DNA of 8,718 bases from a virus. Lineage: Duplodnaviria; Heunggongvirae; Uroviricota; Caudoviricetes. The translations under genes and the position numbers were made by a program. How positions within the stretch are numbered: position 1 is the stretch's first letter; every line of letters starts with the position of its first letter. The DNA is taken from the IMG/VR virus record IMGVR_UViG_2681813271_000005; one strand, given 5' to 3'. The notes below the pieces were generated by a model. That model saw nothing but the letters and a program-made list of their open reading frames with translations. It did no database searches and was not told the origin of the DNA. Positions 1,225 through 8,639 of the stretch are shown one piece after another.

Positions 1225-4923
<3,699 letters not shown>

Positions 4924-5080
4924 TAAATAATTCAGGGATTATTAACTGTAACCTCATTTCAAAAGGATACATAAATGAAATCTAATGAACGTACTTTCAA
5001 TAGTACCAGTACTAACCCATTCAGTATTAGCGGAAAAGAAACAATTGGAATGAAGAAAAGGATTTACAGGAGTAAGAGCT

Positions 5081-5377
5081 ATGGCACAGGGATTACAATG
5101 TTGGAATGCAGCGGGTGTATTAGTAGTAGATCTGACTGATTATAACATACGTTTTATGGGTACTTATACTGTCAAGGCTACTTCTGCACAGACCTATACT
5201 GTATCAGTACCAAATATGAAAACTACAGGCTGGTTTGTACACTATGCCCCCGCCAGTGATACCTTTAATGAGTGGTCAGCCTTTTGTAATAATGGGTCAT
5301 TTACTGCGGTTTATTTGCCAACATATGCACCGTTAGCTGGTAACTACACTTTTAACGTATATAAGTGGACGGCGTAA
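5081..5377 (+). CDS. Hypothetical protein; paralog of the next gene at its N-terminus; possible tail-tip accessory protein
   Basis: 98-aa ORF with AGGAG (5068-5072) 8 nt before the ATG. The N-terminus MAQGLQCWNAAGVLVVDLTD aligns with MA-GFEVYNSAGALTIDSTN of the next ORF. It lies immediately downstream of the J-like gene. Confidence 0.55.
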   Translation: MAQGLQCWNAAGVLVVDLTDYNIRFMGTYTVKATSAQTYTVSVPNMKTTGWFVHYAPASDTFNEWSAFCNNGSFTAVYLPTYAPLAGNYTFNVYKWTA

Positions 5378-5378
5378 G

Positions 5379-6035
5379 ATGGCAGGTTTCGAGGTATATA
5401 ATTCAGCGGGTGCACTGACTATAGATAGTACTAACAAGTCGATAATGACGGGTGCAGTAAAGGCCATGGGAAATCTAACTGATACGGGATACTACACAGG
5501 CTTTACCTGTGCCTTCGGTAATGGTGGATCGCTCGGTTTCGTTATGCCATCAGTAGTAGCTAACAGGAACACAACACAGTACTGGTTCCAGATACAGAAA
5601 GACGGGGCATGGTGTTTCCCTGGTGCCTATATGTTCCAGCCTGGCATGGGCAGGTTCATGACAAGTAGTCACACGGCTACCCCCACATCTGGTTTTCTTG
5701 ATGTGTTCAGTGAAGAAGGTACTTTAATCTGGTCTGCTGCATCAGCGGCAACAATGCCACGTATCAGGGGATTTTTGACAGCACCTGCGGCTACCGATCT
5801 CAGTACTGCCATTACGGTAACGTCTCCAGTAGCTGATCCCTGGTTCTGCTGGTCACAATGTCCGGGGAACATATCAGATGATGGTACAGTAATTGGGTAC
5901 TCTGGTCTGGTTATCAGGCGTAATTCCAGTACTTCATTCAGTCTACAGTACGTTTCAAAGAACCAGAAAACCTACCGCCAGGCAATGGGGAATAATGGTA
6001 TCCAGATAGCATTGGCGACATTTACAGGGTATTAA
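5379..6035 (+). CDS. Hypothetical protein; paralog of the previous gene at its N-terminus; Cys-containing; possible receptor-binding or tail accessory protein
   Basis: 218-aa ORF starting 1 nt after the stop of the previous gene. It shares the N-terminal motif G[LF]xx[WY]N[AS]AG[AV]L[TV][VI]D[LS]T[DN] with that gene. Contains four Cys, including FCWSQCPG. Confidence 0.55.
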   Translation: MAGFEVYNSAGALTIDSTNKSIMTGAVKAMGNLTDTGYYTGFTCAFGNGGSLGFVMPSVVANRNTTQYWFQIQKDGAWCFPGAYMFQPGMGRFMTSSHTATPTSGFLDVFSEEGTLIWSAASAATMPRIRGFLTAPAATDLSTAITVTSPVADPWFCWSQCPGNISDDGTVIGYSGLVIRRNSSTSFSLQYVSKNQKTYRQAMGNNGIQIALATFTGY

Positions 6036-6036
6036 T

Positions 6037-6078
6037 ACAATAACAATAACAATAACAATAACAATAACAATAACAACA
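6037..6078. repeat. Hexanucleotide tandem repeat (ACAATA)x6 plus one imperfect unit (ACAACA)
   Basis: Read directly from the sequence: six perfect ACAATA units at 6037-6072 and ACAACA at 6073-6078. It sits between the stop of the 5379-6035 gene and the AAGGGA ribosome-binding site of the 6092 gene. Confidence 0.9.
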
Positions 6079-6091
6079 AAGGGATTTCAGT

Positions 6092-6364
6092 ATGGATATC
6101 GGTGCTATTTTAGCTCTTGTTATTTCTGGATGCGTATTCCTTTATACTATCTTTAGAGATAATACAAAGGATACGAATGATCTATTAACTCGCGTTGCTA
6201 CTCTTGAAACTACCATTGCTGTACTGGAAAGTAGTATTTCCCGTATTGAGGATGATCAGGATAAGATGAGAGATACACTAAGTAAACTGGAAACACAAAT
6301 CCATGAACTTGATGTTAAGATTGAAAGGATTATTGCAATTCTTCAGCAGAAACAACGACCATAA
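6092..6364 (+). CDS. Small membrane-anchored coiled-coil protein (one N-terminal TM helix); candidate lysis regulator, spanin-like or superinfection-exclusion protein
   Basis: 90-aa ORF with AAGGGA (6079-6084) 7 nt upstream. The N-terminus IGAILALVISGCVFLYTIF is a hydrophobic helix of about 20 aa. The rest is charged with heptad-like periodicity (LETTIAVLESSISRIEDDQDKMRDTLSKLETQIHELDVKIERIIAILQ). It ends at the bidirectional terminator and is convergent with the lysozyme gene. Confidence 0.55.
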   Translation: MDIGAILALVISGCVFLYTIFRDNTKDTNDLLTRVATLETTIAVLESSISRIEDDQDKMRDTLSKLETQIHELDVKIERIIAILQQKQRP

Positions 6365-6365
6365 A

Positions 6366-6402
6366 AAAAGGCATAGTATGTCATTCGTACTATGCCTTTT
6401 CT
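6366..6402. terminator. Bidirectional rho-independent terminator
   Basis: Perfect 9-bp stem GGCATAGTA (6370-6378) / TACTATGCC (6388-6396) with a 9-nt loop. An A-run (6363-6369) lies upstream and a T-rich tract (6397-6415) downstream, so it works on both strands. It sits between convergent genes, with the - strand stop codon at 6403-6405. Confidence 0.8.
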
Positions 6403-6852
6403 TTATTTGTTTTTAAGTACTGCAATCATGGAATTCACACGGTTTGGTGTCTGCCTGTACCATAGAGAACACTTAGCCTGTTTAATTGCTTCAAGGTAAT
6501 CATGTGCTTTCAGGGCTGCTAACATCTTACGGAATTTCTTCACCCCGCCAATACCTAACTGGAAGGTCATGATAATAATAAAATCATTCCAGTCATCGGG
6601 AAGATTTAACCCTAATGTCTGTACCTGCATAATTGTTTTGGCTAAATCGCGAGATAGTAACTTGTCTGCTTCGCTTTCAGTAATGCCAGTACTAAAATCT
6701 TCTCCCGCCTGAATTAAGTGACCATATCCAATAGTACTACATCCTAAACTATCAGCATATGGATAGAATTTCCCATTTCTGAAGTACTTCAAATTTGCCT
6801 GATACTCTTTAGTACCTTCATATTCTTTTAATCGTGTTTTTAAATCGCTCAT
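6403..6852 (-). CDS. Endolysin, T4 lysozyme-like (glycoside hydrolase family 24 muramidase)
   Basis: 149-aa ORF. The catalytic signature E12-G ... YAD34SLGCST40IGYGHL matches the T4 lysozyme Glu/Asp/Thr triad and the TIGxGH motif. The C-terminal SLWYRQTPNRVNSMI closely matches T4 lysozyme SRWYNQTPNRAKRVI, and MTFQLGIGGV matches MVFQMGETGV. No N-terminal hydrophobic (SAR) segment. Confidence 0.9.
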   Translation of the reverse strand: MSDLKTRLKEYEGTKEYQANLKYFRNGKFYPYADSLGCSTIGYGHLIQAGEDFSTGITESEADKLLSRDLAKTIMQVQTLGLNLPDDWNDFIIIMTFQLGIGGVKKFRKMLAALKAHDYLEAIKQAKCSLWYRQTPNRVNSMIAVLKNK

Positions 6853-6862
6853 TTACTAAATA

Positions 6863-6881
6863 CCTATAATGAATTTATAGG
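6863..6881. promoter_or_regulatory. Perfect palindrome CCTATAA-N5-TTATAGG in the 36-bp divergent intergenic region; contains a TATAAT -10-like hexamer (6865-6870); candidate operator or divergent promoter core
   Basis: Read directly: CCTATAA (6863-6869) and TTATAGG (6875-6881) are reverse complements. TATAAT sits 18 nt upstream of the ATG at 6889, with AGGA (6879-6882) as ribosome-binding site. On the - strand, TATAAA (complement of 6872-6877) lies upstream of the lysozyme start. Confidence 0.35.
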
Positions 6882-6888
6882 AATATTT

Positions 6889-7323
6889 ATGATGAGTGAA
6901 TGGAAATACTCGGATGATTGGAGCGAGGAGGAAATGTTATCCGGTGAATATGCTGGTTTCGTTTATATCTTTCAGTTTGAGGATGGTTCTAATTATGTCG
7001 GTGCTAAGCAAATCTATCAGCGGGTTAAGGATGCGAGAAAGCTAAAGCCCACTTCAAAGGAAAATGGCTGGCGTGAGTACCTCAGTAGTTCCAATGTCGT
7101 TAAAAACAAAATTGAAAATGGTGAACAGTACTCAAAAACGATTCTATGGTGCTTCGCAACTATGCGAGAGGTAATGATTGTAGAGGCAATACTGATCCTT
7201 CATCAGATGCTTAAACCGGAATGTTTGAATCTGGCAATGATGAGTAAGATTAGATCACCAAATGCAAAGGATAAAAAAAGACTACTCGGAATAGTACAGG
7301 AACTATTGGAGTACTTGAATTGA
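6889..7323 (+). CDS. GIY-YIG family nuclease, short free-standing catalytic domain (homing-endonuclease-like)
   Basis: 144-aa ORF. AGFVYIFQFEDGSNYVGAKQIYQRVKDAR matches the GIY-(10-11 aa)-YVG motif plus the conserved Arg, as in I-TevI SGIYQIKNTLNNKVYVGSAKDFEKRWKRH. A downstream MREVMIVEAI is consistent with the conserved catalytic Glu helix. There is no long C-terminal DNA-binding domain. Confidence 0.7.
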   Translation: MMSEWKYSDDWSEEEMLSGEYAGFVYIFQFEDGSNYVGAKQIYQRVKDARKLKPTSKENGWREYLSSSNVVKNKIENGEQYSKTILWCFATMREVMIVEAILILHQMLKPECLNLAMMSKIRSPNAKDKKRLLGIVQELLEYLN

Positions 7324-7911: not shown

Positions 7912-8219
7912 ATTTTGAGCAACATTATGGTGATTTAATAAGCAAGATTAAGCTAAATGGCATGACACCAGATGGTAATAGTATGCCAATTAACAAATGT
8001 TTTCTTGATAAGAAATTTCAAAAGGTCGTTAAGAAAAGTAATTATCAGATTGATAGCTATATGAACGTTATTTATGAGAAGAAGAAAGATTTCAAAGTTG
8101 GTGAAGTACTTGAATGGGAATTACAGGGTGAAAAGATGCCTGTATTTCTAATTGAGAGTAAAAAGCTCTTTGTGAAGGGTAAACATTTTTGGGTATATGC
8201 CGTGGGGATTATTGAATGA
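7908..8219 (+). CDS. Hypothetical protein
   Basis: 103-aa ORF coupled by ATGA overlaps to the upstream gene (7908) and the downstream gene (8216). No recognisable motif. Confidence 0.45.
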   Translation: MNFEQHYGDLISKIKLNGMTPDGNSMPINKCFLDKKFQKVVKKSNYQIDSYMNVIYEKKKDFKVGEVLEWELQGEKMPVFLIESKKLFVKGKHFWVYAVGIIE

Positions 8220-8249
8220 TTAGTATATTGATTGAGTTTCTGAAGTCAG
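8216..8249 (+). CDS. 5' end of a hypothetical gene, truncated by the assembly gap
   Basis: ATG at 8216 overlaps the previous stop (ATGA). Only 11 codons (MISILIEFLKS) are readable before the N-run; the rest of the tracked ORF is X. Confidence 0.25.
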
Positions 8250-8565
8250 NNNNNNNNNNNNNNNNNNNNNNNNNNNNNNNNNNNNNNNNNNNNNNNNNNN
8301 NNNNNNNNNNNNNNNNNNNNNNNNNNNNNNNNNNNNNNNNNNNNNNNNNNNNNNNNNNNNNNNNNNNNNNNNNNNNNNNNNNNNNNNNNNNNNNNNNNNN
8401 NNNNNNNNNNNNNNNNNNNNNNNNNNNNNNNNNNNNNNNNNNNNNNNNNNNNNNNNNNNNNNNNNNNNNNNNNNNNNNNNNNNNNNNNNNNNNNNNNNNN
8501 NNNNNNNNNNNNNNNNNNNNNNNNNNNNNNNNNNNNNNNNNNNNNNNNNNNNNNNNNNNNNNNNN
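8250..8565. other. Assembly gap (run of N)
   Basis: 316 consecutive N characters read directly from the sequence. Its true length and content are unknown. Confidence 0.99.
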
Positions 8566-8639
8566 TTGGTGGAAGCTGAAAGATTTTTCCTTTAATATGT
8601 GTTTTGAGTTAATAAAATAGCAATCTAAGGATTTGATTT

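Follow-up and report, generated by a model that had tools for sequence, protein, structure and literature searches.

The window analysed here, an 8,718-nt stretch of DNA, comes from the tail and lysis end of an AT-rich prophage of the siphovirus type in the Shigella sonnei chromosome, and it contains a perfect ACAATA hexanucleotide array in the spacer between two of its genes. We conclude that this array is probably a hypervariable VNTR of the MLVA type, driven by slippage and largely neutral, in a prophage that is decaying. The best reading makes it a common type of repeat, fast to slip and of the sort on which strain typing relies, and not an evolved switch. The array and the features around it are as follows.

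6037..6076, + strand: perfect hexanucleotide tandem repeat (ACAATA)6.7, the variable-number part, established with Tandem Repeats Finder, the sequence, a chance control and related loci
6039..6080, + strand: the same tract divided into triplets, 14 A-R-N (here A-A-N) in a row, with its end one base ahead of the G run in the ribosome-binding site
5379..6035, + strand: upstream gene, 218 aa, phrog_4524, precomputed Pfam DUF8377; its stop codon TAA (6033-6035) is one base before the repeat
6079..6084, + strand: Shine-Dalgarno-like AAGGGA, read from the sequence, with G6083 8 nt before the ATG
6092..6364, + strand: downstream gene, 90 aa; hydrophobic anchor at the N terminus (residues 4-21), followed by a coiled-coil tail
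6366..6400, no strand assigned: strong hairpin of 15 pairs between an A run and a T run; bidirectional terminator
6012..6041, + strand: promoter-like TTGGCG-18-TACAAT, 9/12 matches, a lead only
6117..6124, + strand: TTGTTATT in the downstream ORF, perfectly complementary over 8 nt to the AATAACAA of any repeat unit

Tandem Repeats Finder reported a single array in the whole window, at 6037-6076, with a period of 6, ACAATA as the unit, 6.7 copies, 100% matches and zero indels. In order, the sequence reads ...GGG TAT TAA (6033-6035), T, (ACAATA)6, ACAA, CAAAGGGATTTCAGT and ATG (6092), and an end at 6078 is reached when a degenerate seventh unit, ACAACA, is counted in (copy 6061-6078, 94%). In 500 first-order Markov simulations of the window, the period-6 tract had a mean length of 12.5 nt and a maximum of 17 nt, as compared with 40 nt in the actual sequence, indicating that the ACAATA tract is not a product of chance. 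Its length is far above the chance level, as expected for a VNTR, in which a short unit is repeated head to tail well beyond what chance would give. The repeat lies between the TAA of the 218-aa gene (ORF 5379-6035) and the ribosome-binding site of the 90-aa gene (ORF 6092-6364), and the repeat region ends 15 nt short of the ATG of the latter. The sequence-only reading, which had placed a perfect ACAATA hexamer array between a stop codon and the ribosome-binding site of the next gene, was correct both in its coordinates and in its description. We found no ORF of at least 20 aa across the repeat on either strand. For each unit, the frame of the downstream ATG gives CAA TAA and that of the upstream gene, past its stop codon, gives AAT AAC; the array is untranslated.

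Among 18 S. sonnei-type genomes we observed eight alleles of the repeat, with the allele counts drawn from assemblies. These alleles form a perfect series, (ACAATA)5, 6, 7 and 8, and a second series led by ACAAAA, namely ACAAAA(ACAATA)6, 8, 9 and 10. In the complete genomes, strain 53G has 5 units, ATCC 29930 has 1+6 and 830292 has 1+10. An assembly artefact is an unlikely source of these differences, given that the arrays are shorter than a read and that three finished genomes differ from one another. Across contigs, the distances between the two genes are 38, 44, 50, 56, 62, 68, 74, 80 and 86 nt, all of which differ by multiples of 6. By comparison, the flanks of the S. sonnei-type loci show 0 mismatches in 900 + 2,100 nt and 0-2 mismatches over up to 8.2 kb. 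Because eight alleles occur within near-identical flanks, the repeat is hypermutable relative to its surroundings, and it changes orders of magnitude faster than single sites. Thus, copy number differs within one species between conserved flanks and does so by whole units, the signature of slippage, both of which are properties of a VNTR; a hypermutable simple sequence repeat is also one of the properties of a contingency locus. The proposal that copy number would change in 6-nt steps without altering any reading frame is borne out by the eight alleles and by the lack of an ORF across the repeat. An invariant copy number across isolates had been named as an observation that would speak against that proposal, and copy number is not invariant.

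The number of full units across the related loci ranges from 1 to 10, and expansion was seen in S. sonnei only. Six loci, in prophages that are 95.5-97% identical, carry one unit in a 38-nt spacer and show no change in length despite 3-4.5% divergence of their flanks; in three of the six cases, the mipA of the host shares only 71% identity with the S. sonnei gene. This one-unit allele, the proto-allele, reads TAAT ATAAAT ACAAAA ACAATA ACAACAAAG. A two-unit intermediate is present in a 98.3% relative (L010), and spacers that are A-rich and simple in other ways, such as (AAT)5 in L029, occupy the site in more distant relatives (74-87% protein identity). The progression from one to two to five or more units marks a threshold of instability and the stepwise birth of the array. 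The Shine-Dalgarno region differs between these alleles as well. In the alignment, AGAGG replaces AAGGGA in the one-unit alleles, all of which have AAAGAGGTTCCAGT ahead of the ATG, and AAAGGGATTTCAGT occupies that place (6079-6091) in the S. sonnei-type alleles and in the two-unit intermediate. AAAGAGGTTCCAGT is closer to the Shine-Dalgarno consensus than is AAAGGGATTTCAGT, and the change in the ribosome-binding site and the start of the repeat expansion fall in the same lineage.

The sequence-only reading had assumed the setting of a compact phage genome. Instead, the DNA belongs to a chromosomal prophage of S. sonnei that is being broken up by IS elements. Exact-protein look-ups placed mipA and yeaE next to the prophage in bacterial chromosomes; with look-ups of exact sequences, the conservation of the flanking genes is no evidence either way. 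Chromosomal copies are found in HE616528 (S. sonnei 53G), CP026802 (S. sonnei ATCC 29930) and CP179990 (S. sonnei 830292), and the species of these three complete genomes was confirmed from papers. We identify the DNA as a prophage because it occupies a chromosomal site by mipA and yeaE and has phage structural genes upstream, namely those for a portal, a protease-capsid protein, a Peptidase_S74 fibre, a major tail protein and a tape-measure protein. Within the window, the tail-tip module consists of a distal tail protein, a phrog_2048 tail protein, a DUF6950 protein and a J-like central fibre of 1,100 aa with fn3 and Phage_Tail_Tip domains. The J-like fibre gene is followed by a 98-aa ORF, the 218-aa gene, the 90-aa gene, a lysozyme gene (6403-6852, minus strand), a nuclease gene and genes without an assigned function. 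Along the J-like gene (1400-4900), the G+C content varies from 0.33 to 0.475, and in the rest of the window it is about 0.35-0.39; these swings suggest a mosaic origin of the fibre domains. A run of 316 N at 8250-8565, either masked or unsequenced, breaks the last ORF (8216-8620) and makes the right end of the window uninterpretable. In related loci, a 97-aa ORF occupies the place of this run.

Relatives of this prophage are scarce outside S. sonnei-type genomes. Among INPHARED phages, neither a megablast search with the window nor a blastn search with positions 5700-6420 gave a match, and the 218-aa protein has relatives there only at the protein level, with at most 45% identity; the comparison of spacers therefore drew on no sequenced phage. 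A megablast search of 5,426 complete E. coli genomes gave no match, and a search in distant mode gave only relatives of 65-75% identity, one of which (L041) has a 67-nt, AT-rich spacer with no tandem repeat. The GTDB species representatives contain only two distant relatives, in Scandinavium and Pluralibacter, and IMG/VR holds two identical and eight diverged copies. A 95.5%-identical prophage (L002, L006 and L009) adjoins a mipA/yeaE pair with no more than 71% identity to the S. sonnei pair. A search with the mipA region of L006 gave no match, a result that this low identity explains. Given this divergence of the neighbouring genes, the host is probably of a different enterobacterial genus, in which the same phage lineage would occupy the same chromosomal neighbourhood.

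IS elements are present at sites that differ by strain, including at least three sites in the J-like gene, the tape measure gene and positions elsewhere. Since the elements lie at different places in different strains, the prophage is decaying in S. sonnei. In one strain (GCA_026013135.1), the 90-aa gene is interrupted around codon 15 by an IS2-like element, and it is dispensable in at least one strain. This insertion is at 6755-8085 of L017 (= L038, GCA_026013135.1), with the IS end TAGACTGGCCCCCTGAATCTCC and a GTATT target duplication. It lies about 50 nt downstream of the repeat, within the ORF and outside the repeat itself, and we saw no sign of the recombination hotspot that had been suggested for the array.

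The gene downstream of the repeat encodes a small protein for which sequence comparisons gave little. The 90-aa protein has a weak match to phrog_739 (Rz-like spanin; E 2.7e-5), also matches phrog_1009, and otherwise has generic coiled-coil matches; these weak matches only hint at a lysis-type protein. A DUF2730 ('releasin') label came from a weak precomputed match that our own Pfam scan did not reproduce: DUF2730 was absent at E = 10 among the top 25 Pfam families, and NCBIfam likewise did not return it. No homologue of the 90-aa protein was found in INPHARED phages, and a search for an embedded lipoprotein or o-spanin ORF found none. The convergent lysozyme (6403-6852) has neither a signal nor a SAR segment, and we recognised no holin or spanin pair near it. 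A lysis factor of no recognised type is one possibility for the small membrane protein. The hairpin at 6366-6400 serves both convergent genes, the 90-aa gene and the lysozyme gene (6403-6852, minus strand). Directly after the lysozyme gene, at 6889-7323 (+), is a gene for a SegE-like GIY-YIG nuclease (Pfam E 2e-16) that looks to be of the homing-endonuclease type, here inside a temperate siphovirus prophage; its product is 129, 143 or 144 aa long depending on the strain. The order of a DUF8377 gene, a small N-terminally anchored protein gene, a convergent lysozyme gene and a GIY-YIG nuclease gene is conserved, and it is kept even in E. coli prophages that are only 65-75% identical (L041, 1204-2666).

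On the other side of the repeat, a relative of the 218-aa protein is named 'DUF8377 family phage-derived protein' in RefSeq. The 98-aa (phrog_7961) and 218-aa (phrog_4524/DUF8377) genes form a pair at 5081-6035, downstream of the J-like fibre gene. Counterparts of this pair at 33-45% identity occur in HK639-like phages as well as in siphophages of E. coli and Klebsiella, among them vB_EcoS_NBD2 and Skenny, and the pair is annotated as hypothetical everywhere. It may constitute a conserved tail-tip accessory module.

The history that we favour begins with the proto-allele. An A-rich, cryptically simple intercistronic spacer would have expanded once the prophage reached the S. sonnei lineage, and from about five perfect units on, slipped-strand mispairing during replication would add or remove 6-nt units far faster than point mutation changes single bases. 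Whole-unit changes, stable short alleles and unstable long perfect alleles are all features that match slipped-strand mispairing. Hexamer loops are too large for MutS-dependent repair. The repeat is probably carried on a single long late transcript with its 3' end at the 6366-6400 hairpin, and changes in its length would only stretch an unstructured, A-rich spacer. We infer slippage as the mechanism, co-transcription of the repeat and neutrality of the variation. Given that the prophage is decaying in S. sonnei, selection most likely acts little or not at all on the variation, which would mark the history of strains instead of serving as a selected switch. Serial passage of E. coli O157 gave VNTR rates of 4.4e-5 to 1.8e-3 mutations per generation, nearly always by whole units and higher for long alleles (PMC3777172). 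Many Shigella VNTRs are located in pseudogenes, as are 15/36 of the VNTR loci of S. flexneri (PMC2806262), and a neutral origin fits. The array does abut a ribosome-binding site, which counts against neutrality, as do its perfect (AAN)n form, the 4-6 such triplets that most relatives keep at this place and the predicted drift in Shine-Dalgarno accessibility, and selection could be an alternative cause of the expansion seen in S. sonnei only.

A role for the array in expression, as proposed in the sequence-only reading, could be exerted at the promoter, in the RNA or by phase variation. The promoter-like match TTGGCG-18-TACAAT at 6012-6041, with 9/12 matches, raises the possibility that transcription starts inside the repeat and that copy number sets the length of the 5' leader. 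Its -10 hexamer, TACAAT, is formed from T6036 together with the first repeat unit, and the proto-allele has TATAAA in the same place, which would favour a genuine element. However, we found 6 promoter-like sites in 4800-7000 as compared with 7.4 expected from shuffles, and the four ACAAAA-led alleles, half of the eight in S. sonnei, turn TACAAT into TACAAA with loss of the conserved final T. Furthermore, no terminator was found between the tail genes and the 90-aa gene. Since the tail operon upstream is not closed off from it, the 90-aa gene does not need a dedicated promoter, and the simplest reading of the repeat is an intercistronic spacer in the late transcript. We therefore regard a promoter or leader-length element as highly improbable. 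An RNA structural switch was ruled out by a partition-function scan over copy numbers, in which the RNA of arrays with at least five units was predicted to be about 87-92% unpaired, the predicted accessibility of the start codon was steady at 0.35-0.41 over 0-15 units, and that of the Shine-Dalgarno sequence dropped modestly from 0.86 to 0.58 over the same range. In the ensemble, TTGTTATT is predicted to pair only weakly with the repeat, although such pairing could loop out the start site. Because this octamer codes for the conserved residues LVI, its conservation is uninformative with regard to RNA pairing. No Rfam family reached its threshold for the repeat region.

It is scarcely credible, in our estimation, that the array is a classical contingency (phase-variation) locus, in which selection keeps the repeat for reversible switching of a function in phage or host interaction. 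Such a role would accord with the hypermutability of the repeat and with its position adjoining a gene for a membrane-anchored product, the candidate for control. A contingency repeat would, however, be expected to switch expression either from inside an ORF, with a unit that is not a multiple of 3, or from a place between or next to the elements of a promoter, and this is not what we observed: a 6-nt unit at a non-coding site is unable to shift a frame, and the repeat is not between the hexamers of the sole promoter-like match. Relatives that look intact have one unit only, the prophage is ridden with IS elements, and the candidate gene is disrupted in one strain. Of the properties of a contingency locus, hypermutability is the one that we observed in the array. 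The contingency-type expression modulator that had been envisaged thus finds no support, given that the array is non-coding, that the promoter match is at the chance level and spoiled in half of the alleles, that start-codon accessibility is predicted to be flat and Shine-Dalgarno accessibility to fall modestly, and that the downstream gene is IS-disrupted in one strain.

A further alternative acts on translation. In this case, the (AAU-AAC)n leader would recruit Hfq, through its distal face, or ribosomal protein S1, so that copy number sets the degree to which translation of the 90-aa protein is repressed or enhanced, and a high-copy transcript might titrate Hfq. Motifs of the form (ARN)3-6, particularly AAN motifs, are ligands of the Hfq distal face, and (AAN)3 in the mutS leader is enough for direct translational repression (PMC5580658). 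The tract has the at least three consecutive A-R-N triplets in a leader predicted to be single-stranded that such a site would have (motif per PMC5580658). There are 14 triplets in the window and 6 to 24 in other alleles, the 14-triplet tract takes in a degenerate tail, ACAACAAA, that is common to all alleles and ends at the Shine-Dalgarno sequence, and the tract is predicted to be about 90% unpaired. With regard to known Hfq (A-R-N)n sites and the CA motifs of CrcZ, the repeat is similar in being a perfect (AAN)14 beside a ribosome-binding site and predicted to be single-stranded (PMC5580658), but known functional Hfq sites have 3-6 triplets and are not tandem microsatellites. A cmscan search also aligned the region to the 5' end of the Hfq-sequestering sRNA CrcZ (RF01675; E 2e-4). 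The score of 25.2 bits (16 on a shorter stretch) is far below the gathering score of 95, however, and the alignment covers only the A-rich, CA-motif 5' segment, through AAnAAnAA motifs; this match is a resemblance of motifs and not homology.

Comparison with diverged relatives bears on the same proposal. Six of nine (6/9) keep 4-6 ARN triplets beside the Shine-Dalgarno sequence, and 5/6 of these reach nominal significance when compared with composition shuffles (p 0.02-0.05; the sixth, L026, has p = 0.34). However, there are just two triplets in L022, L030 and L031, homology means that the relatives are not independent, and spacers that are 51-62% A make AAN runs cheap, such that a constraint on the spacer from the kept triplets is suggestive at most. 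In addition, a dispensable downstream gene in a defective prophage would leave little for selection to act on. We consider it unlikely that copy number sets translation in this manner, and quite improbable that the array is a copy-number-tunable (AAN)n landing pad for Hfq or S1 that grades translation of a possibly lysis-related membrane protein. If copy number were to tune translation via Hfq or S1, the locus would be a rheostat set by slippage that works on the RNA instead of by frameshift or promoter spacing. If the reading in which Hfq is titrated were true, alleles of at least 20 triplets might make a prophage-encoded Hfq sponge analogous to CrcZ, and S. sonnei strains would differ in Hfq availability by allele.

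Regarding the favoured reading, that of a largely neutral VNTR, we asked how the locus relates to repeats already in use for typing. The S. sonnei MLVA scheme comprises 26 VNTRs, several of them with 6-bp units, at 2-18 copies (PMC3310650). Two 6-bp loci, SS15 and SS17, had just 2-4 copies in 1,672 isolates (PMC3310650), and because of this range they do not fit the locus described here. The forward primers of seven variable loci, SS1, SS3, SS6, SS9, SS10, SS11 and SS13 (PMC3420240), were absent on both strands, at up to 3 mismatches, from the window and from the 12-kb loci L004, L008 and L016. The motif words were not found in the Shigella VNTR papers, nor as a repeat unit in the S. flexneri supplement. 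Judged on the forward primers of these seven loci and the ranges of SS15 and SS17, the locus seems to lie outside the commonly used S. sonnei panel. As a highly variable 6-bp repeat of S. sonnei it offers a practical marker and, since no spacer seen exceeds 86 nt, one that can be scored in short-read assemblies. The locus also provides a natural series of microsatellite birth, with one, two and at least five units, in a datable clonal pathogen.

Repeats in leaders or promoters are known to grade expression in other bacteria, as with the 7-bp repeats of H. influenzae hmw1A/hmw2A, the AGAT repeat of M. catarrhalis uspA2 and the TAAA repeat of N. meningitidis nadA. Those repeats occupy promoters or leaders dedicated to surface adhesin genes that are under immune selection, and their effects have been measured. 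The array resembles them in being a non-coding repeat upstream of a start codon, but it differs from them in its location, which is an intercistronic spacer of a defective prophage. Closer counterparts exist in S. sonnei itself, in SS9, SS10, SS11 and SS13, which are reportedly MLVA loci of Liang et al. 2007. Like the array, these are loci of the same species that have a 6-bp unit, vary between clonal isolates and have conserved flanks (PMC3310650). The 5-10 full units observed here compare with ranges of 2-18, 2-10 and 2-9 at S. sonnei 6-bp MLVA loci (PMC3310650). Likewise, the VNTRs of E. coli O157:H7, for example O157-10, are short-unit repeats in an enterobacterial chromosome that gain and lose whole units, at 1e-5 to 1e-3 per generation (PMC3777172). 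While these are other loci with other sequences, the faster mutation of their long alleles matches the contrast observed here between stable one-unit alleles and unstable alleles of at least five units (PMC3777172).
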